Part shown: piece by piece, positions 1-35,932 of the stretch
Layout of the letters: every line of letters starts with the position of its first letter
Position numbering within the stretch: the first letter of the stretch is position 1
UHGV virus genome: UHGV-1541349
Source: a virus
Length of the DNA stretch: 35,932 nt
Strand: one strand, 5' to 3'
Made by a program: the position numbers and the translations under genes
The notes under the pieces: model-generated
Database searches by the model: none
What the model was told of the DNA's origin: nothing
Seen by the model: only the letters and a program-made list of their open reading frames with translations

Positions 1-81
1 TTGCCCACCTCAATTTTAACTGATTATTGATATTGAAAACTCGTACTTTTAACTGATACAGATATTTAGGAAACCATAAAT

Positions 82-447
82 TTATTTGTCCAAGATTCTA
101 TCCATAATATTTCTTAGTTCTTGTCTGGTTGATTCTATTTTAGCAAGCAACGTTTTGATCAATGAGGGTGAAAAATCAACTGTGCGTGGATCGTTAGCTA
201 ACCACAGTTTAAGTAACCCACCAAGTCGACCAAGATCAGCATTTACTCGGCTAAGCTCTACAACCTGTTCAATATCTACAATAGACTCAACCTGATAACC
301 CATTGCTACTTTACGAATGAAGCTCGCTACACTTAAGCCAGATGCTTCTGCATTTTCCTGGATTTGCGCTTTTTCATCTGGCAAACAATAAACTTTAATT
401 GGTGTACTATTTTTTCTAGTCTGAGAAACGGTCATATCATTCTCCAT
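82..447 (-). CDS. Ribbon-helix-helix relaxosome accessory protein, MobC-like (putative)
   Basis: N-terminal RHH-like segment (IKVYCLPDEKAQIQENAEASGLSVASFIR) and C-terminal LGRLGG motif resembling the MobC family. Family assignment is from motif recall only. Any relaxase partner would lie beyond the window start. Confidence 0.4.
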   Translation of the reverse strand: MENDMTVSQTRKNSTPIKVYCLPDEKAQIQENAEASGLSVASFIRKVAMGYQVESIVDIEQVVELSRVNADLGRLGGLLKLWLANDPRTVDFSPSLIKTLLAKIESTRQELRNIMDRILDK

Positions 448-717
448 ACAGGCGGTAGCCGATCAGCCTCGCAGAGCAGGACTCCGTTGAGCAGCCCAGC
501 TGCTAATAAGAGAAGGTAAAGTAGAAGCACCGTTTACGGTGGGCCTACTTTACATGTCCTGCCCTACATTTGCCGTTGTGAATCTGTGTACGTATTGTGT
601 ATTCCTGTGTACTCAGTGTGTTTTCCTAAAGCATTTGTGCAGGATTAGTAGTGTAAAAATGTGCAGCATATGTGTTTATTGGAAGGGAAATTATTTGAAT
701 GACCCTAAGAAATATTT

Positions 718-1011
718 TTATTCTCGCGGCTTGGGTTTTGGCGGCCTGCCACGTTTCCTTTGAAACCTATTTATCTCTTTCGCTATATCGTCATTTTCTG
801 TCTTTGACTCAACAGATTTATCTATCCAATCCTTAACATCTTCTCTACGCCAGAGAAGACGTTTATTACCGGGAAGACGGCATCTTGGTGGAAGACATTT
901 TGGATTTCGCGTTGCATCACTGCGGATACTTTTTACAGTTTTCTTTAATGCAAAAGCCAACTCTTCAACGGTTATAAGTTCTGGCATAACTGATTTCATC
1001 GAAGAACCCAT
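718..1011 (-). CDS. AlpA-family HTH regulator / excisionase-like DNA-binding protein
   Basis: Small basic protein with an AlpA/Xis-like HTH (ITVEELAFALKKTVKSIRSD...LPGNKRLLWRREDVKDWID). Typical of integrative elements. Exact start uncertain. Confidence 0.55.
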   Translation of the reverse strand: MGSSMKSVMPELITVEELAFALKKTVKSIRSDATRNPKCLPPRCRLPGNKRLLWRREDVKDWIDKSVESKTENDDIAKEINRFQRKRGRPPKPKPRE

Positions 1012-1036
1012 CTCTCAGTAGAAATTTGAGGATTTT

Positions 1037-1058
1037 AGCGGCTAAAATTTTAGCCGCT
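1037..1058. promoter_or_regulatory. Perfect 22-bp palindrome (agcggctaaaattttagccgct), candidate operator upstream of the AlpA-like gene
   Basis: Read directly from the sequence, 26 bp upstream of the AlpA-like start at 1011. The operator role is inferred. Confidence 0.4.
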
Positions 1059-1311
1059 AAAGTTTGCTAACCAACGTTATGAATTGAGAATAATTAAAAC
1101 TTACTGGCAAAAAGAATAATGTCAACAGGATTTTTATTCATCGGATTTTTACTCCATATGAAATTGGTTTTATTGACCGATTTCTGAATGACACTAAGGT
1201 TTTAATAATTCCTTTAATCTTTTTGGTTATATAAAAGGTTAAAGATCAGGTTAGAGAGGTGTGGAAAAGCGATATATTCATTTGTATATTATGACAATTT
1301 TAAATTATATC

Positions 1312-1372
1312 CGTACCTCAAATGTCATGAAAGCGTACCTCATATGTCATAAAGGCGTACCTCATATGTCAT
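1312..1372. repeat. Three tandem 17-bp direct repeats (cgtacctcaWatgtcat) with 22-bp phasing; iteron-like
   Basis: Copies at 1312-1328, 1334-1350 and 1356-1372 inside a roughly 900-bp AT-rich non-coding stretch. A consensus DnaA box (ttatccaca, minus strand) lies at 1422-1430. Confidence 0.8.
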
Positions 1373-1920
1373 ATAATAAAAAATAAGCAAACAAGTTATA
1401 CACAATATTATTCACAGAATCTGTGGATAAATACACAGATTATACATGATAAAATAGATTGTTTAGCTAAACTAAATAGCAATAAATAAAATGAAACAAA
1501 ATGTAAATAACAGAGAGTTGTAGATAACTTATAAATTTGGTTAGCTAACCTTTATAAGAAACACTGTTTGTAAAAGATTCATTTCTGACAACGGATATAT
1601 CGAAATTTAGTAAGTAAAATGCCACAGCTAAATCTTTTATATCATTTGTTTAGCTATACTATTTTTACTAAGGGTTATGTATATCTAAACTACAAAAACA
1701 GCAATGCAAAAGATAAACGGGTAACAATCGTAGAAAAGCTTTGTTGCTGAGGGGTTACCCTCATTGGAAACCGGCTTGAGATAAGTATCATATGAGGATA
1801 TCAAATCCGACTGGTGAGGCCAGGTTTGATAATTTGAAGCGCTGGACGTAGCGTAGATGCCACAATAGAGGAGACAATAGTAAATTAAATTATAAGATAA
1901 ATGCAGATTTTTGTTTCGCT

Positions 1921-2235
1921 ATGAAGTTATCACTGAAGATAAAGTATTCTAAGATAGATGAATGTGAGGTTGCCATGACAACGATGAAAGCTAGACCCAG
2001 TTCTGTTGCGGATATTCTTTTAAATGAGTATTTGAAACCTTTAGCTATGTCTTCACGTGACTTAGCTAATTTGATGGGAGTACCTTATAGCAGAATTGAC
2101 GATATATTACGACACTCTAAAAATATAAGTAATAGAGAGGGGGAATTACTTTCTAAAATCTTCAATACTGATAGCGATTTTTGGATAAAACTTCAAGAAA
2201 ACTATATAAATCATACATGCAAATTCCATAAATAG
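1921..2235 (+). CDS. HigA-like XRE-family HTH protein (antitoxin-like), no cognate toxin seen
   Basis: HTH resembling HigA/VapI antidotes (SRDLANLMGVPYSRIDDILRHSKNISNREGELLSKIF..FW). True start may be the internal Met at 1975. No HigB/RelE-like ORF is adjacent. Confidence 0.5.
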   Translation: MKLSLKIKYSKIDECEVAMTTMKARPSSVADILLNEYLKPLAMSSRDLANLMGVPYSRIDDILRHSKNISNREGELLSKIFNTDSDFWIKLQENYINHTCKFHK

Positions 2236-2499
2236 TGCATAAACGCTAACTTAAGGCATATATTATTTGTACTACGCCGTTGTATTAAAGAGAGATATCA
2301 AGCAACAAAAATCAACTATAATAGGTAAAAAATCAGTATGAAGGAATTATCACAATCTGCACGATGGTTCTAATATAAATTTAGTAAAATAAAACATAAA
2401 TCATTTCCGTATAAAAAGATGGCCAGGTCTTTATCATCGACCCAGCCAATTAGTAAAGGATTTTTCATTTCAAACTCATTAAACCTTAGGCATAAAACC

Positions 2500-4989
2500 T
2501 TAATGTTCAATATCTATTTGATTATCAATTTGAATAATGTTTTGAATCTCACTGTAAATATCAATGTTCTCATCTGGTACATCTATGCTAACCAATAAAC
2601 TATATTTAACATTGTTAATATAGCGATCCTGCGCAGTACGATATTTCCACCATCCACCAACAGGATAGACAGCGATAGTATTCATCTCTGTTAAATCTGC
2701 AGCACTGCCTTTCCAAGCATCTGAGTGTAATGAACCTCTAACTCTGAGTTGAGGCCCCAGAAACCATCCTGACGCATCTCCTTCAGGTCCATTGTATTCT
2801 TCATTATTCGCATTACGGTTTATCGAAGCACGGAAATTTTCAAGGGTCTGATTAGGTCTAATAACTGCAAATCTCAATCCATGAGATTGATACGAATATT
2901 GTCGTCTGAATCCTTTTTGACTTGGATTAGGTTCAATAAAATACGACAATGTGATTCTTAAAATAACATTTGTTTCTGGTGGTAGTAAGCGAAGAGCTTC
3001 TACGGGCCAAGGGAGTGAAAACAGATGCATTTCATTCAATGTAGGATCAGTAGAACCATCTCTTTTAAATGGGGTGATTTCCGACTGAGATATTAATGTA
3101 AGTGCATTTTCCGCACTATGCATTGCTCGATTTAAATTAGGTACTCCATAACCAACCATCCTTAATAAGCTTTCTTTAGCCGATTTTGGTGTCCCCTGTG
3201 CACGTTCTGTTCTATATCGTTCGTGCATACGACTAGTCCATCTTGCTGTATGAACAAGTAATCCCCTAATAGTTTCAGGCCAATATTCTGGGTACTGAGC
3301 CATTAGCATAGCAGCATGTTTTGATACTAGAGCACAGGCTGCGCTAGTATCTGAATTAACTTCAAACAATTGATTTGTTGCCCTGCCAGAGGTTGTGAGC
3401 AAAGATAATTCAATTGTATTTGTGATTTCATCACGGCTAGGTGATATAAGTTTGTTTCCGCCTTCCTCTACTAAATCTGGCTTATATGGGGCATGCTTTT
3501 TCCATCCCCAGGATACCGATGACCGAGATGACGGTGCAATATCTTCTGACATAGCGAAAGGAGACCAACCATCATATTCGCGGTCTGTATGGGTTGTTTT
3601 ATCAGTATACGCCCCTACAGTTAATGCATTCCAAGATTGAGCAGGATCTTCAATTTCAGCAAGAGTCACTGAATCCCAATAATCTAATTCTAAATTTGTA
3701 GGTTGAGAGTTACCCGCAGAAATTATAAATAATCTGCGGATATCATCCTCTAAACCAAAACTAAACTTGTCAATCTCTGCAGACCATGAGGACGGTTGGC
3801 CTCCAAGAGTATTAGGCTCTGCTGTCACAGCAAGCGAATAAACTCTGCGCCAGTTCGGGTTTTCCAGCTCCAGACGACTTGACGTTCCTGTAGTAATAGC
3901 TCCATAAAGATTAGGATCATTAGTAGCTCTTGGAGGTAGTATCCTTCCTGATTCGATATTGTACGGAATCGAAATGTCCTGATCGTTCAATAAAACAGAC
4001 AGGAAATCTCCATAAACACATAGTCCTGCTTGTCTGGAACCGTGGTCATTATAAGGCCTTTGATTATAATCATCGAAAAGTGGCCAAGATATGTCCCAAG
4101 CAGCTGCCAGTGATGAGTTAGTAAATCTAGATAATAGTGGATTATTGTAGTTAACACCTGTATCTAATATACAAACAGAAACATCAGCTTCATTGTTACG
4201 CGTAATTCTTGCAGCAACATTTTCTGCCCACTGATGCTGTTCTGTAGGTAAGGAATTAACTATAACTGATATATCATCCCTCGCTGATCTTATCTCTTTT
4301 AAATTAGATATTAATTCAGGACAAACTTTTAATCTCGATAGACTCGTACGGATAAGAACAACAGTAGTATCGAAAAAATTAATAGAAGTATTCCCGAGCC
4401 TTCCATTAATTCTTTCGCATAAACGCCGAGCAATATTTAGCACATCCTCCTTATTACCCTTAAGCCAAAGCTCAAACCACTTTTCAACACCGTGATCATC
4501 CGGAATAAGATCTTTTTTATCTGTCCAGAAAGAAGTTATATCTGCTAACTCGATATTTTGTATGCTATCAATTAACAAATGATTTCTAGGGAACTCGATA
4601 CCATCCTTCGATGGATTCAAATAGTCATTTATTTTTTTAGTGAATTTAGTTCTGTCATTTTCATTAATGTATATAATCGCAGTTTCACGATTATTTGATT
4701 TAACTAAAGAACAAAGCTTGAAATAAGTATTATCGATTTTATCTATAGGAAGATCGCATTGTTCAAAACTGATTAGCCTAACATAAATCCCTTTTTCATC
4801 AGTAACAGGGGGAAGCCTCGGTCTTTCATCATAATGATTCAATATACGGCTATACTGATTTAGTAATGATATACCATGTACCGCTCGATCACGAGCTGGG
4901 ACTTGGGGACTACGACCATTGCTCCTAGAGCGATAGTTTTCGGGGGAAACATAGCCGTTTAATAAAATATGCCTCTTGTTGGTAGTCAT
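2500..4989 (-). CDS. ietS: Subtilisin-like S8 serine peptidase with N- and C-terminal extensions (IetS-like)
   Basis: S8 catalytic motifs in the correct order: D (VCILDTGVN), H (NDHGSRQAG), S (DTSAACALVSKHAAM). Lies 9 bp downstream of an AAA ATPase on the same strand, the architecture of the IetAS defense pair. Symbol is by architecture only. Confidence 0.7.
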   Translation of the reverse strand: MTTNKRHILLNGYVSPENYRSRSNGRSPQVPARDRAVHGISLLNQYSRILNHYDERPRLPPVTDEKGIYVRLISFEQCDLPIDKIDNTYFKLCSLVKSNNRETAIIYINENDRTKFTKKINDYLNPSKDGIEFPRNHLLIDSIQNIELADITSFWTDKKDLIPDDHGVEKWFELWLKGNKEDVLNIARRLCERINGRLGNTSINFFDTTVVLIRTSLSRLKVCPELISNLKEIRSARDDISVIVNSLPTEQHQWAENVAARITRNNEADVSVCILDTGVNYNNPLLSRFTNSSLAAAWDISWPLFDDYNQRPYNDHGSRQAGLCVYGDFLSVLLNDQDISIPYNIESGRILPPRATNDPNLYGAITTGTSSRLELENPNWRRVYSLAVTAEPNTLGGQPSSWSAEIDKFSFGLEDDIRRLFIISAGNSQPTNLELDYWDSVTLAEIEDPAQSWNALTVGAYTDKTTHTDREYDGWSPFAMSEDIAPSSRSSVSWGWKKHAPYKPDLVEEGGNKLISPSRDEITNTIELSLLTTSGRATNQLFEVNSDTSAACALVSKHAAMLMAQYPEYWPETIRGLLVHTARWTSRMHERYRTERAQGTPKSAKESLLRMVGYGVPNLNRAMHSAENALTLISQSEITPFKRDGSTDPTLNEMHLFSLPWPVEALRLLPPETNVILRITLSYFIEPNPSQKGFRRQYSYQSHGLRFAVIRPNQTLENFRASINRNANNEEYNGPEGDASGWFLGPQLRVRGSLHSDAWKGSAADLTEMNTIAVYPVGGWWKYRTAQDRYINNVKYSLLVSIDVPDENIDIYSEIQNIIQIDNQIDIEH

Positions 4990-4997
4990 TTCATCCC

Positions 4998-5984
4998 TTA
5001 TTGTCTACTTTCTTGCCTACGCTTTATAGCCTTTACTAACAAATCGGTTGTAATATTGTTTGCATTATAAAGCACTGATTCTTTGGCAGCATCTTCACTT
5101 GCTCGCGTGATCTCCGCTGCACTTAGACCTGAAGCACTATCAATGATCTCACTCCAAAATAAATTACCGAGGTCAAAGACAGCGAGTCTCTGTTCAATAA
5201 GATTCCTGATTAGATTATCCTCAGGCCTTGTGAACGGTATAATATCGTCAAATCGTCTATATAAGGCGCGATCTAAAAGCTCTGGATGATTGGTTGCAGC
5301 TAAAACTATGCTCTCAGAATCATCCTGCTCTACAAACATTAAAAAAGAATTTAAGACCCTACGAATTTCTCCAACGTCATTCTGAGCGCCACGCTGAGTT
5401 CCTATAGCATCGAACTCGTCAAAAAAATATACAGCTCTTGTTTGCCGTATGTGGTCAAAAATTAAACGCAGCTTAGCTGCAGTTTCACCCATATAGCGAG
5501 TGATTAGATTATCTAAGACGACTGTATAAAGTGGTAGCTTTAACTCTGTAGCAATGACTGATGCGGACATTGTCTTACCAGTACCGGGAGGACCAGTGAA
5601 AAGAATTTTTCTTCTTGGAATAAGCCCAAACTCAGAAAGTTTATCTTTCTGTTTTTGTTCAAGCAGAACCTGATTCAATCTTTCCCTAACGCTTCCAGAA
5701 ATCACCAGATCTTGAAGATGTACTGGCTTGTTCGTTTGCTCAAGTAACCCCTTAAGATCACCATCAGGCTGCTTAACAAATGGTGTAAGTCGTTTTTCAA
5801 CTAAACCTACAGAACTCGTTGTTTTCTGATTTTTATCAACTAAGTTTTTTATATCATTAGCAAGCTTATGATGACCTTGCCTTGCTTCCTTAGCTGCCAC
5901 CTGCAAAGCAATAGAAAAGAAACGCTGATCATCACGATCAACGTGGCTTTTCAATAAAGCTTTGATCTGCTCTGCAGTAGCCAT
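4998..5984 (-). CDS. ietA: AAA-family ATPase (IetA-like)
   Basis: Walker A GPPGTGKT and Walker B VYFFDEFD in a classical AAA fold. First gene of a two-gene operon with the S8 peptidase. Confidence 0.7.
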   Translation of the reverse strand: MATAEQIKALLKSHVDRDDQRFFSIALQVAAKEARQGHHKLANDIKNLVDKNQKTTSSVGLVEKRLTPFVKQPDGDLKGLLEQTNKPVHLQDLVISGSVRERLNQVLLEQKQKDKLSEFGLIPRRKILFTGPPGTGKTMSASVIATELKLPLYTVVLDNLITRYMGETAAKLRLIFDHIRQTRAVYFFDEFDAIGTQRGAQNDVGEIRRVLNSFLMFVEQDDSESIVLAATNHPELLDRALYRRFDDIIPFTRPEDNLIRNLIEQRLAVFDLGNLFWSEIIDSASGLSAAEITRASEDAAKESVLYNANNITTDLLVKAIKRRQESRQ

Positions 5985-6448
5985 AACCCCTCATACTCCC
6001 TTGTTCTCTTGTTGCAAAGTTTACTATAAATTCATTTAGTTCGACATCGTTACCTACCTGCTCATTACAGGAAAGTAATACCTTCATGAGCGTATCATCA
6101 ATGATCAAAGTGTAATCAAACACCTAGGCATAGTACCTTCACTACGTGAACTGTATCACTCATTGTTATGTAACCTGAGTGTCCCTTTCTGGCACTTAGC
6201 TCTATCGGATAATGTATTTAAGCTGTTAATTTATAAGATTTTTCATCACTAAACTGTCTTTCATGCAACGCATCGATAAGGTCAACACATTACGTTTATA
6301 AGGAAGTAGTTTGTTTAGCGTAATGATGCAAATGCTGACCAATTAGCTTTGCCACAATTTTGCCACACCTACAACGCGCAAAATTGCACATTAGTGTTGA
6401 ACAAAGCAAAATACTGCAATAGTAACTTGATGATTTTACGAGAAAAGA

Positions 6449-6494
6449 TGGTGCCGATAATAGGAGTCGAACCTACGACCTTCGCATTACGAAT
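6449..6494 (-). other. 46-nt 3' fragment of tRNA-Thr (thrW-like, anticodon loop to CCA): prophage attachment-site core
   Basis: Minus-strand sequence attcgtaatgcgaaggtcgtaggttcgactcctattatcggcacca matches the 3' part of enterobacterial tRNA-Thr(CGU) as recalled, then diverges 5' of the anticodon loop. Typical of an att junction distal to the integrase. Confidence 0.7.
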
Positions 6495-6719
6495 CTGTAG
6501 CACCAATCATAACTATCTGTTTTAGCAAGCATTAACCGCATTCACTAAGTTATAGTTGATGGCACAAACAGAAAGTTGATGCATGATGTTTTCATGCGTA
6601 TGTCACAAATACGGCACAACAATCTTCAAATATGTAGACACACATCCACAGGAGAGCACAAAGCCTTGCAATACAGTGCAAAGCTTTGTGCGTATCAGTT
6701 TTGTCCTGTGCGCCGGATG

Positions 6720-7325
6720 TCATCTGGCCTGAACTTCCGGAGGCGTAGGCCATTCAATATCCGGTGCGCTGGCGGTATCAACGCCCTCCAGCGCATCCAG
6801 ATAATCAAGCCAGGCATTATATTGTTCTTTTTCTGCGTCCTTCAGGCGACCCATTGCTGCTTTACCAGGCCATTGCTTACCATTCATAAAGTCATTGGCC
6901 TGGCTAATCAGCGCCTGTAGTTTTGTTGCCGCCACAGAAATATCATATGCGCGCTGAGCTTCGGGATCGGCAACCCATTTATTACCATCCCATTTATCAA
7001 ACTTTGTAGTTGGTGCTTCAAAAGTAAAGCCTTCACGCAACGGTCCAATATATTCGATAGTCACCGGCTTCCCGTTACTGGTGGTGTATGCTGTTTCTCC
7101 ACGATGGTCTTCTTTAAGCACCCACTCAGATCCAGAAAAAATAAATACCTTCCCTCCTGCTTCGGCCCCTGGTTCTATCGCCGTAGAGCATCCGGGCATA
7201 CTGACACCGATGTTAATAAACTCGTCAGACCATCCCATATATTCAGAAGTCACAGCGTCGTAGTAATAACAGCGGATTTCACCCGGTTCTGTTGCCAGTC
7301 CGTTTACATCGAAAACAGGTTTCAT
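6720..7325 (-). CDS. Tail fibre assembly protein (Tfa/gpU-like)
   Basis: About 200 aa immediately downstream of the tail fibre gene, Tfa-like composition. Last gene before the att fragment. Confidence 0.65.
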   Translation of the reverse strand: MKPVFDVNGLATEPGEIRCYYYDAVTSEYMGWSDEFINIGVSMPGCSTAIEPGAEAGGKVFIFSGSEWVLKEDHRGETAYTTSNGKPVTIEYIGPLREGFTFEAPTTKFDKWDGNKWVADPEAQRAYDISVAATKLQALISQANDFMNGKQWPGKAAMGRLKDAEKEQYNAWLDYLDALEGVDTASAPDIEWPTPPEVQAR

Positions 7326-8101
7326 TATTTAGCCCTTACAAGAAAGTTGAATGCAATATTTCTTGGGCGGCTTTCCGTGGATGTTCTGGCAACCCTCGAT
7401 AAATCAAAATTGAATGTAGAAGTTGATACGGTTCCGCCTGGTGCCGGGGGGGCCAGATTGCCCTGAACAACGCTGCGAGAAAATACCCCCAACGCATCTG
7501 TATTTACCCCTGTATAAAGATCAACGAGATAACCAGTAACATTCTGAATGGCGTCTCCCTGCGGTGAAAGCAGGGTTCGCCCATTATCTATCCCACGTCC
7601 ATCATCCCAGACACGCAGAAACTCTCCTCGCAGATCTGGCAATTTCAGGCCCGGCCAAACAAGGGCCAATTTTGGGTAAGTGGTAGGGGAAAATGTTGAG
7701 TCGTTAAACTTAAGGAACACCATGTCGGCCCATTCCGGCATCACGGTATTTGGCATGGCAGAAGACGGCCAAAAAAATGGAACTCCTATCGGTGGTGCAC
7801 CTGCTCCTAAACCAAGGTTTGTGGTAATCGCTGTCGCCAGCTTTGCCACCAGTCCATCAACGTCACCATCATCGAGCGCGTCCAGTTCGGCGTTCGCGAT
7901 AAACTGCCCCAGTACAGCCGCCATCGTCGACGGTTGGCGCAGCGCTTTACTGACCTGTGCGCTGGATGCTTTACCCGAGGAGAATCCTTTCTTCAGTGCG
8001 GTTAGCGTCTCCCATTCCTCCTGCGAGGTAACATTTGCATTAGCATCTGTCGCAAACGCTTTAAAATCATTAGTTCCAGCCATTAAAGTAATCTCCCCCA
8101 T
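7325..8101 (-). CDS. Tail fibre protein
   Basis: Gly/Ala-rich protein with a conserved fibre-type C-terminus (RPRNIAFNFLVRAK). Sits between the baseplate genes and Tfa. Confidence 0.6.
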   Translation of the reverse strand: MGEITLMAGTNDFKAFATDANANVTSQEEWETLTALKKGFSSGKASSAQVSKALRQPSTMAAVLGQFIANAELDALDDGDVDGLVAKLATAITTNLGLGAGAPPIGVPFFWPSSAMPNTVMPEWADMVFLKFNDSTFSPTTYPKLALVWPGLKLPDLRGEFLRVWDDGRGIDNGRTLLSPQGDAIQNVTGYLVDLYTGVNTDALGVFSRSVVQGNLAPPAPGGTVSTSTFNFDLSRVARTSTESRPRNIAFNFLVRAK

Positions 8102-8799
8102 GCGCCGTCATCAAAACCGGCGATGTATTCGTTATCCATGTCAAATCCAAAGAATTTTGTTCCTTCGGACGGTGTTTCGACCGAGGGTGTTTCAACGCTG
8201 CCAGCCCATACACCAGCAGCTTTAACGGTGAGATAACCCTGTTTGATAGCGGCTATCAGTTCGAGTGACACATCAGAAATATCAGTCTCGGGAAAAACCC
8301 AGACCGATATCGTCATGTCCTGGTTATCGACGATCTGCATCTTCAGTCCAGAGCCTGCGGTAGCAGCGTCAAGGATGGGAGGCAGAGAGTCGTTCCGACC
8401 ATCCCAGTTGTTGATAGCGATTTTCGCTTTCAGAATGATGCGGTACGTCTCATCACTCAGCGTCGTATAGCCAGAATCAGGATCATATGGCCCTTGCCAG
8501 ATGCCCTGGTCATATCCGAGCCCGTCAGTGTCCCAGCTGAAATAAACGCCGCTAATTGGCTGGCTGACTATACGACTACGCCCAATCCACAGGCCGAGGA
8601 TATCGAGTTGCACGCCAACCGCCGTATCGATATCGAAGGCTGTTACAAGCCCTGACATAGTGCTGGACACATCAATCAGCGGGCGGGTGCTCAGATCTAT
8701 ATGGTCAAAAAAGAGTGGCTTGGTAGCATGGTAGTTAGTGATCAGTTCGGTGTATTTGCTCATGAGGTCACCGTGATAGTGACGTGACTCGCAACGCAT
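8083..8799 (-). CDS. Baseplate/tail protein (Mu gp48-like)
   Basis: Called by position after the baseplate J-like gene in a Mu-type tail module. Confidence 0.45.
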   Translation of the reverse strand: MRCESRHYHGDLMSKYTELITNYHATKPLFFDHIDLSTRPLIDVSSTMSGLVTAFDIDTAVGVQLDILGLWIGRSRIVSQPISGVYFSWDTDGLGYDQGIWQGPYDPDSGYTTLSDETYRIILKAKIAINNWDGRNDSLPPILDAATAGSGLKMQIVDNQDMTISVWVFPETDISDVSLELIAAIKQGYLTVKAAGVWAGSVETPSVETPSEGTKFFGFDMDNEYIAGFDDGAWGRLL

Positions 8800-30725: not shown

Positions 30726-30801
30726 TGGTGCTGGTTAACGGACTTGAACCGCTACCCATTCGCTTACAAGGCGACTGCTCTACCATTGGAGCTAAACCAG
30801 C
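30726..30801 (-). tRNA. Phage-encoded tRNA, anticodon UGU (Thr-like)
   Basis: 76 nt ending in CCA. Manual fold gives 7-bp acceptor, D and T arms, and anticodon loop CTTGTAA. Anticodon assignment is manual and unverified. Confidence 0.55.
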
Positions 30802-30806
30802 ATGTT

Positions 30807-30881
30807 TGGCGGGACAGCGTGGACTCGAACCACGATAAGAAGGTTAACAGCCTTCCGTAATGACCTTTATACGACTGACCC
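30807..30881 (-). tRNA. Phage-encoded tRNA, anticodon GUU (Asn-like), one acceptor-stem mismatch
   Basis: 75 nt ending in CCA. Perfect anticodon stem GAAGG/CCTTC with loop CTGTTAA, T-stem CGTGG/CCACG, and a T.T mismatch at acceptor pair 4-69. Confidence 0.5.
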
Positions 30882-34528: not shown

Positions 34529-35436
34529 GATCTGCTCCTGTAACTATCCCATGTAAACGCAAGAGTGCACCCTCCGCCATCATTCATCCTGTCAATAACA
34601 CGCTCACCAATGAATGCCGAAAGTTCATCTTTGCTCTGATTACTAATCAGGATTGTTGGCTTCATGTATTCATATCTGGTGTTGATAATTTCGAACATGA
34701 TTAGCTTTTCAGCATCACTGCCGAACTGCACGCCAACCTCATCGATTATTAACAAGTCAGGATGCGTAAATTGCCTAATGACTTCTTCTTCAGTTCTGGT
34801 TGCGGCCTTAGACCATGTTGATTTGTACTCTCTGGCAATTTTCAACGCAGTGGTAAATATCACAGAGCTTTGATGCTCGATAATGGCGTGCCTAGCGATA
34901 GCCAGTGCAAGGTGGTTCTTTCCAGTTCCAGGCTTACCACACATGACCAGTCCGCCACCTTTTTGAAGGCGTTCAGGCCACTTACTGGCATATGCCTGGC
35001 ATACCTTAAGAACTCGCTTTGCATCATCGTTAACAGGCTCATAATTCTGAAGAGTGCAATTTTTGAACCTCTCTGGAATATTGAGAGAATTCAACAAATA
35101 TTCAATTTTTGATTGTCTTGCTCTTTGTTCTGCCTGCTCACGTTCAATCTCTTTCTTACGAATTTTCTCCTCAAGGCACTGTGGGCACTCAGATTTACTT
35201 GAAGTAATTCTTTTTCCTGAGATGGTCAGATATTTCTCATAGGAAGTATATTTACCGTGTTTCTCGCACTCTTCCACTGTGCTGGTAACTGACATTCCAT
35301 CTGATACTGATCCAATTTTGCTAAACTCAAGTTTCTGTTTCAGATCAGAAATGTCATTGATTTTTGAGTCTACAAGTTGCCTTTGCAGTGCCAGATTGTA
35401 ACCATTTGTCGTATTCATATTCACTCCTGCGCCCAT
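34525..35436 (-). CDS. DnaC-like helicase loader
   Basis: Walker A GKPGTGKNHLA and Walker B LLIIDEVG. Occupies the position of lambda P. Probable true start is ATG 35418, just after the upstream stop. Confidence 0.7.
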   Translation of the reverse strand: MGAGVNMNTTNGYNLALQRQLVDSKINDISDLKQKLEFSKIGSVSDGMSVTSTVEECEKHGKYTSYEKYLTISGKRITSSKSECPQCLEEKIRKKEIEREQAEQRARQSKIEYLLNSLNIPERFKNCTLQNYEPVNDDAKRVLKVCQAYASKWPERLQKGGGLVMCGKPGTGKNHLALAIARHAIIEHQSSVIFTTALKIAREYKSTWSKAATRTEEEVIRQFTHPDLLIIDEVGVQFGSDAEKLIMFEIINTRYEYMKPTILISNQSKDELSAFIGERVIDRMNDGGGCTLAFTWDSYRSRS

Positions 35437-35831
35437 GAAGGCATTTCAGTTTGCCCGTAATCTTTGGCGGCAAAGTTTTCCTGCATAGCTCGCTGCTGCG
35501 GCCTAGGTTGAGATTTCCCCTTTGGAGTCTTGGGTTCAAAAATCCCCTGCCAACCACTGGCGATGCTCTGGTTTATAATTTCTTCAGGTGTATATCCCTT
35601 CTCCAGACTTCTGCTTAGAACGTTGATAGCCTGAGTGACGCTTTGCTTAGACTTGATCGACTTACCTATCTCCTTGCGATAGGTAACCCACGACAACCAT
35701 GTTTCTGCCGATAACCAATCAGGCAACTCTGTTTCTAGCGGGTCGAACTTCTGAGAAATTTTTTTGGGGGATATAGGGGGTTTATTAATATTTTCTTTTG
35801 TCTTTAAAGAATGTCTTTTGTGTGTCTCTAA
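35421..35831 (-). pseudogene. Replication initiator (O-like/DnaT-like C-terminal domain), 5' end truncated by an IS5 insertion
   Basis: The reading frame runs straight into the IS5 terminus at 35832, and the apparent N-terminus MFAPS is encoded by IS5 end sequence from a TTG. DnaT-like C-terminal segment (WLSWVTYRKEIGKS...ASGWQGIF). Confidence 0.5.
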
Positions 35832-35932
35832 GGAAGGTGCGAACAAGTTCCTGATATGAGATCATCATATTCATCCCGAGCGCATCCCAGAGGGACATCA
35901 TGAGCCATCAACTCACCTTCGCCGATAGTGAA
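35832..35932 (+). mobile_element. insH: IS5 left end (partial, continues beyond the window)
   Basis: Terminal ggaaggtgcgaacaag with the transposase start ATGAGCCATCAACTCACCTTCGCCGATAGTGAA (MSHQLTFADSE) at 35900. Preceded by the preferred CTAA target at 35828-35831. Confidence 0.8.

Follow-up and report, generated by a model that had tools for sequence, protein, structure and literature searches.

Results

Organization of the window

The stretch of viral DNA analyzed here (UHGV-1541349; 35,932 nucleotides, hereafter the window) contains a single 46-bp core repeat derived from a tRNA gene (6449–6494, minus strand), with a different element on each side of it. To the left lies an islet (1–6448, minus strand), which continues past window position 1, and which we interpret as the B' side, or thrW-proximal end, of an older integrative element. 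To the right is the body of a prophage (6495–35831, minus strand), comprising contractile-tail and baseplate, head, terminase and lysis genes, two tRNAs, Q, nin and replication genes; the window contains neither int and xis nor the immunity region. The right-hand extremity (35832–35932, plus strand) is the left end of an insertion sequence that, from its terminal repeat and MSHQLTFADSE start, we take to be IS5; it is inserted at CTAA, and the window stops 101 nt into it.

A 3' fragment of thrW

Read on the minus strand, window positions 6494 to 6449 (ATTCGTAATGCGAAGGTCGTAGGTTCGACTCCTATTATCGGCACCA) are identical at 46 of 46 nucleotides to nt 31–76 of the 76-nt tRNA-Thr(CGU) gene thrW, from the anticodon loop to the CCA end, using the intact genes of the complete E. 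coli genomes ECONIH4 and TUM2820 as references. Identity ends at thrW position 30, where the window has G and thrW has C, and the 30 nt upstream are unrelated, such that the 5' half of thrW is not present at this fragment. With up to three mismatches allowed, the 46-mer matched once in the window and in none of 100 shuffles, and neither a second core nor its last 25 nt was found elsewhere in the window. ARAGORN, which demands a complete cloverleaf, called no tRNA at the fragment, and Rfam at gathering threshold did not call it either. When Rfam was run permissively, the tRNA model reached 15.7 bits, short of its gathering score of 29; the T arm and the 3' strand of the acceptor matched and the 5' half was left unpaired, a weak result that is expected of a 3' piece of a tRNA.

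The preliminary description of this locus, made from the letters of the DNA, had recognized the 3' 46 nt of a tRNA-Thr on the strand of the late genes (minus), 225 bp past the tail-fibre-assembly gene. Its coordinates are all correct, and the tRNA can now be specified as thrW; the contrary case which it raised, namely that the fragment might align to a different RNA family, was checked and rejected, the remaining Rfam matches being at chance level (E above 1). An origin from the tRNA-Thr(UGU) gene carried by the prophage itself was likewise rejected, as the two sequences are unrelated.

The same 46-bp core recurs unchanged in at least 100 phage records. Annotations designate it the attP core in P22-pbi, ES18, SfII, SfI, mEp213, mEp043, HK446 and HK542, the last four bearing the annotation 'type CP4-6; similar to thrW and ptwF', and it is present unannotated in SfV, among others.

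The flanks of the core

The 225 bp from the stop codon of the tail-fibre-assembly gene to the core (6495–6719, minus strand) correspond to the P arm of a phage attachment site. An ungapped comparison gives 94% identity with the corresponding 225 bp in the attP of phage mEp213 (L004) and of contig L008, as against ~27%, the random level, with the thrW sequence lying 5' of the core. Beyond the core, the 120 bp downstream are 100% identical to the DNA 3' of thrW in ECONIH4, and ~27% identical to the phage P' arm. Taken together, these four comparisons identify the site as a P-core-B' hybrid junction. The P arm is also 94–95% identical to those of mEp043, HK446, mEpX2, HK75, HK542, ECP1 and SfX, and is unrelated (~26% identity) to that of P22.

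The tail-fibre-assembly gene is the last of the late operon (6720–7325, minus strand; Pfam Caudo_TAP, E = 7e-28). An exact-protein look-up recovered its 201-aa product, identical, from 10 contigs, and in all 10 the core lies exactly 225 bp after the gene. Among these contigs, four different downstream contexts follow the assembly gene, P arm and core. One is the attP form, represented by mEp213 (JQ182733) and by L008, an apparently unintegrated metagenome contig from a close relative of the window prophage with the same contractile-tail type; here the assembly gene is followed by 225 bp, the core, 14 bp and then int-xis. In L007 and L009 the core is followed by an AAA/S8 islet; in L005, L006 and L012 by CbtA/CbeA, CP4-6-like genes; and in L010 and L011 by a P4-type integrase. 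As the same P arm and core precede four unrelated contexts, both evidently travel with the phage.

A tandem TTGTGCC-type motif within the P arm (TTGTGCCGTATTTGTGACAT; 6600–6619, minus strand) is a candidate arm-type integrase-binding site, an assignment suggested by its distribution. In free-phage attP there are two copies of the 20-nt tandem motif TTGTGCCGTATTTGTGMCAT, one in the P arm and the other in P', 48 bp beyond the core. The window has a single copy, as do the other int-distal junctions that share this P arm (L005–L013), and the P' copy stands alone at the thrW-int junction of TUM2820; the arm-type-like motif is thus divided between two junctions, as expected if attP had recombined. 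The P arm further contains an inverted repeat (6656–6691; 15-nt arms, 93% complementary, 6-nt loop) beginning 29 nt after the assembly-gene stop and kept in mEp213 and L008, which we did not call as a terminator because no T run follows it; it may instead belong to an IHF/Xis region.

Between mEp213, L008 and TUM2820, the Int that accompanies this P arm shows 99.7–100% identity; its identity to P22 Int is 54%. Given this co-occurrence of the P arm with a conserved mEp213-type Int, we predict that the missing integrase of the window prophage is of mEp213/SfX type. The junction is informative in two respects, then: it sets one exact boundary of the prophage, at 6494/6495, and its att type (thrW, P22/mEp213 family) predicts the integrase.

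The islet

Window positions 1–6494, core included, are 100% identical over 6494 bp to ECONIH4, where they abut an intact thrW next to proA in the order trbL', trbJ, traJ, HigA-like gene, S8 peptidase, AAA ATPase, intact thrW, proA, proB. At least 14 further genomes show this islet-thrW adjacency. When 2 kb spanning the site was used as a query, thousands of E. coli genomes matched, up to window position 6494 only, and many of these matches continue into a tRNA-Thr that is annotated and intact. The islet is accessory: any part of it was found in 269 of 5426 complete E. coli genomes, and 80% or more of it in 19. Since it lies directly 3' of intact thrW in strains that lack the prophage, the DNA to the left of the core is a unit separate from the prophage.

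The right part of the islet encodes an IetA-like AAA ATPase (4998–5984, minus strand; PADLOC IetA, E = 5.5e-77) and an IetS-like S8 peptidase (2500–4989, minus strand; PADLOC IetS, E = 2.9e-34). The two genes are adjacent and co-oriented (2500–5984), as is required for membership of IetAS, and by this match they are predicted to constitute an IetAS two-gene anti-phage defence system, of a known kind. The pair sits at the thrW-proximal edge of the islet, within 500 bp of the phage attachment junction. The left part contains a small DNA-binding ORF and a TraJ/NikA-like gene (82–447, minus strand), directly upstream of which is a traJ-II RNA motif (465–564, minus strand; Rfam, 87.3 bits). The latter two appear to be leftovers of a conjugative element, and trbJ and trbL follow in L007, ECONIH4 and 730V1. 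Positions 1011–2500 are AT-rich with one sizeable ORF only (1921–2235, plus strand), which RefSeq genomes list as an antitoxin of the HigA family and which has no Pfam match at 1e-3; no HigB-like partner ORF of at least 40 aa adjoins it.

A tandem TGTGGCAAA repeat (TGTGGCAAAATTGTGGCAAA; 6348–6367, minus strand) lies 82 bp from the core. TGTGGCAAAATTGTGGCAAA is unique in the window, with 0 occurrences expected, and among 31 loci the tandem repeat TGTGGCAAWATTGTGGCAAA was found only at the thrW-proximal end of the islet and at the distal end in 730V1, by the islet integrase and a fourth core. This distribution leads us to propose the repeat as a candidate arm-type site for an integrase of the islet's own, and its presence at both islet ends supports a discrete thrW-integrating element with its own putative arm-type sites. 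The far end of the islet is beyond the window, and its definition as a bounded element draws on other genomes, in some of which it has been scrambled by IS1, IS903 or ISKpn26. Window positions 1–6448 would accordingly represent an older element with an IetAS pair, as opposed to prophage cargo.

The prophage body and its IS5 end

With its contractile-tail and baseplate genes, the prophage aligns to Citrobacter phage Omnitron (86% coverage, 95.9% identity), and Salmonella phage SEN34 is another relative. Homology to the lambda-tailed mEp213 is limited to window positions 6448–7362: lambda-tailed siphoviruses (mEp213) share the assembly gene, P arm and core at 98% identity, whereas the other tail genes are of Omnitron/SEN34 type. 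Given that the virion lineage differs from that of mEp213, the assembly-gene/attP/int module can be regarded as an exchangeable mosaic cassette. A mosaic breakpoint is visible at the start of the tail-fibre-assembly gene. Mosaicism is also apparent in database look-ups: a 109-kb scaffold from ENA (L007) is 100% identical to window positions 1–17325, and look-ups of the DnaC-like protein and the large terminase matched contigs other than L007. No record matched the tail-fibre ORF in its 258-aa reading, probably because another start codon had been chosen there. ARAGORN called only two complete tRNAs in the window, both of them phage-borne and both also detected by Rfam; these genes, for tRNA-Thr(UGU) (30726–30801, minus strand) and tRNA-Asn(GUU) (30807–30881, minus strand), sit between the Q antiterminator region and the lysis genes.

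IS5 is inserted within the first TGTCTCTAACTTCGAGACA-type iteron of the origin region, inside phage replication gene O (35421–35831 adjoining). The uninterrupted relatives L014, L015 and L017 align to 35831 and then continue with TGTCTCTAACTTCGAGACA iterons. With IS5 in the origin and O gene, the prophage is probably replication-defective. Neither the core junction together with this prophage nor the IS5 junction was found in complete E. coli genomes, and in exact-pattern scans of genome and metagenome contigs both the window IS5 junction and the predicted right-hand IS5/O-gene junction were absent.

Complete genomes with the same islet junction

The far end of such prophages can be read in two complete genomes. 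In TUM2820 the order is islet, partial core, a related prophage of ~40 kb, xis/int, 14 bp, intact thrW, proA, and int lies ~10 kb from the replication gene. The thrW region of 730V1 (NZ_CP061764.1) contains four direct core copies and three integrases. From the intact thrW (3952835–3952910) it continues with int, a contractile-tailed prophage, its assembly gene and a core (3910773); then another int, a lambdoid prophage with Avs2 and a core (3866167); and then an AAA/S8-traJ-trbJ-trbL islet with its own 357-aa tyrosine recombinase, followed by a core (3850397), ykfI and yafW. The islet of 730V1 is ~15.8 kb, between two cores. In both genomes examined xis/int lies 14 bp from an intact thrW at the far end of the prophage. 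On this basis the location predicted in the preliminary description for int and the intact thrW of the window genome, beyond the IS5 end, is well supported, short of proof, and we would put the distance at ~10–12 kb.

At the fourth core of 730V1, RefSeq annotates a 112-nt 'tRNA-Ser' (L029 44398–44509; NZ_CP061764.1 3850397–3850508), of which only the 3' 49 nt correspond to the thrW core, here the distal att site of the islet, and the remainder bears no relation to it. The call seems to be an artefact caused by a partial tRNA.

Discussion

Three features together characterize the 46-nt fragment as an attR: a 46-bp core with a known boundary, a P-arm flank homologous to phage attP, and a B' flank identical to non-lysogens. 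We are confident that it constitutes the int-distal attR of a temperate phage integrated in thrW, in tandem with an older IetAS islet, naming the P-core-B' junction attR after the convention used for Shigella phages (PMC3306764). The events at the locus may be envisaged as follows. A temperate phage with lambdoid early genes and a contractile tail would have integrated into thrW by site-specific recombination through a tyrosine integrase, with crossover within the core restoring thrW in full at the end nearest int and leaving the displaced 3' 46 nt of the gene at the far end, beside the former downstream DNA. That DNA would not have been backbone; rather, it would have been an earlier thrW-integrated element, carrying the IetAS pair and conjugative remnants, such that the newcomer inserted between thrW and the older islet to produce a tandem array. 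Arrival of the islet before the prophage is suggested by the strains that have the islet and lack the prophage.

These results agree closely with what had been proposed from the sequence at the outset, namely an att junction distal to the integrase, a separate unit at 1–6448, and tandem or composite occupancy of one tRNA hotspot. The first accords with free-phage attP, in which the same gene and 225 bp are followed by the core and then int. The second was upheld by the comparison that had been suggested, with strains lacking the prophage as the empty site: in ECONIH4 the islet adjoins intact thrW, and its distribution (269/5426) and bounds in 730V1 point the same way. For the third, the four direct cores in 730V1 are telling, and are reinforced by the wider census of E. 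coli described below.

The condition of the prophage invites a different account of its incompleteness, in which it is a truncated or rearranged remnant, the int-proximal end having been removed or displaced by an IS5-mediated deletion or inversion. The prophage is already damaged, with IS5 within its replication origin and O gene; the thrW region of relatives is heavily scrambled by IS elements; and the exact IS5 junction matched no complete E. coli genome or searched contig. We nevertheless consider this account unlikely, because an intact CTAA target adjoins the end of IS5 and phage sequence is unbroken up to it, as in a simple insertion, and because both complete genomes examined with the same junction type contain full-length prophages ending in int and thrW. 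In addition, a window that ends inside a multicopy IS would seem to resemble an assembly or contig break more than a biological breakpoint.

A more adaptive interpretation can be drawn, in which the array is not a mere accident of serial integration: either the IetAS islet has a functional thrW-type att end, with tandem TGTGGCAAA arm-type repeats of its own, right beside the phage attR, and could be excised or packaged with the prophage via the outer cores, or the defence pair has been selected at thrW as the entry point of P22/SfX-type phages. We think it very improbable that the locus reflects either.

Likewise, it could be argued that the fragment is the islet's own attachment scar only, and that the prophage arrived by a different att site or by illegitimate recombination, given that the islet too is an element of thrW, with the core invariably at its proximal end and in this sense common to both elements. 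The chance of this seems to us exceedingly small, as the phage-side flank of 225 bp constitutes the P arm of an already described attP and stops precisely where the core begins, and as the assembly gene, P arm and core are found joined to unrelated neighbours: the IetAS islet, free-phage int, and islands of CP4-6-like and P4-type-integrase kinds. Finally, the suggestion that the fragment is a thrW pseudogene left by a deletion or IS-mediated truncation, with no relation to site-specific recombination, would fit a 3' tRNA fragment called by no tRNA finder, and yet has almost no claim to belief when its break point is the exact boundary of the 46-bp core in more than 100 phage records, the adjoining flank is a phage P arm with no IS end, and the truncation point is fixed, with the same 46-nt block at the same distance in 10/10 loci with the identical assembly protein.

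As an attR, the feature is a standard one, of a thrW prophage of the P22 family and mEp213 subtype; it belongs to a known kind and is not surprising. Its core is identical to, and its P arm 94–95% identical with, those of the group comprising mEp213, mEp043, HK446, HK542, mEpX2, HK75 and SfX, and it shares with mEp213 and mEp043 the order assembly gene, 225 bp, core, with an assembly gene that is 98% identical. The mEp213 group has lambda-like non-contractile tails, whereas in the window the att/assembly module is joined to a contractile Omnitron/SEN34-like virion module; further, the group possesses the whole attP, and the window only the recombined P half. With P22, SfV, SfI, SfII and SfIV the window prophage shares the same target, thrW downstream of proA, and the identical 46-bp core. 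P22 has the int, 14 bp, core layout found in mEp213-type attP, and an Int of the same family, to which the mEp213 type is 54% identical. In contrast, the arms of P22 and these Sf phages are unrelated (~26%) to those seen here, and the genes beside the core are gtr O-antigen genes, where the window has the tail-fibre-assembly gene.

The arrangement of two elements in series at thrW, with core copies between them, is akin to that of tandem SfI-SfX lysogens of S. flexneri, in which SfI entered an SfX lysogen at the attL side, with the intact tRNA, so that tandem thrW integration has been produced experimentally (PMC3306764). There the newcomer is at the intact-tRNA junction, and the window is organized along the same lines, the prophage being the proximal element and the older islet the distal one. 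The two cases differ in that SfI and SfX are both inducible phages whose order of arrival was established by experiment, whereas the distal element here is a decayed conjugative/defence islet. A further parallel, and the reference precedent to which the mEp213 and HK446 annotations point, is the cryptic prophage CP4-6 of K-12, an integrated element with intact thrW at one end and a partial copy, the pseudo-tRNA ptwF, at the other. CP4-6 is a different element from those in the window; CP4-6-like genes (ykfI/yafW, CbtA/CbeA) are found further downstream, or directly after the core, in 730V1, L005, L006 and L012.

More broadly, thrW is among the most used tDNA integration hotspots (PMC7545054). 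Across complete E. coli genomes with any match, we counted 7582 core copies in 5017 genomes, with up to four per genome; extra partial copies of thrW are therefore routine, which bears out tandem occupancy as originally proposed for this locus. The site thus illustrates the serial build-up of elements at tRNA hotspots, a principle already established for thrW by SfI/SfX and by thrW/ptwF of K-12.

Two further observations in 730V1 concern what accumulates around thrW. In its second prophage, Avs2 (AVAST type 2) is the last gene before attR (L027 10597–15051; NZ_CP061764.1 3866596–3871050), the position held by the gtr genes in P22 and the Sf phages, and this att-adjacent slot appears to be a cargo site. 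Downstream of thrW, the variable region of the same genome (L029 20900–36000; ~3826900–3842000) contains a heat-resistance locus with clpK, sHSP20, yfdX1/2 and kefB-GI, together with a group II intron and several IS elements, and the thrW-lac interval is a large accretion zone.
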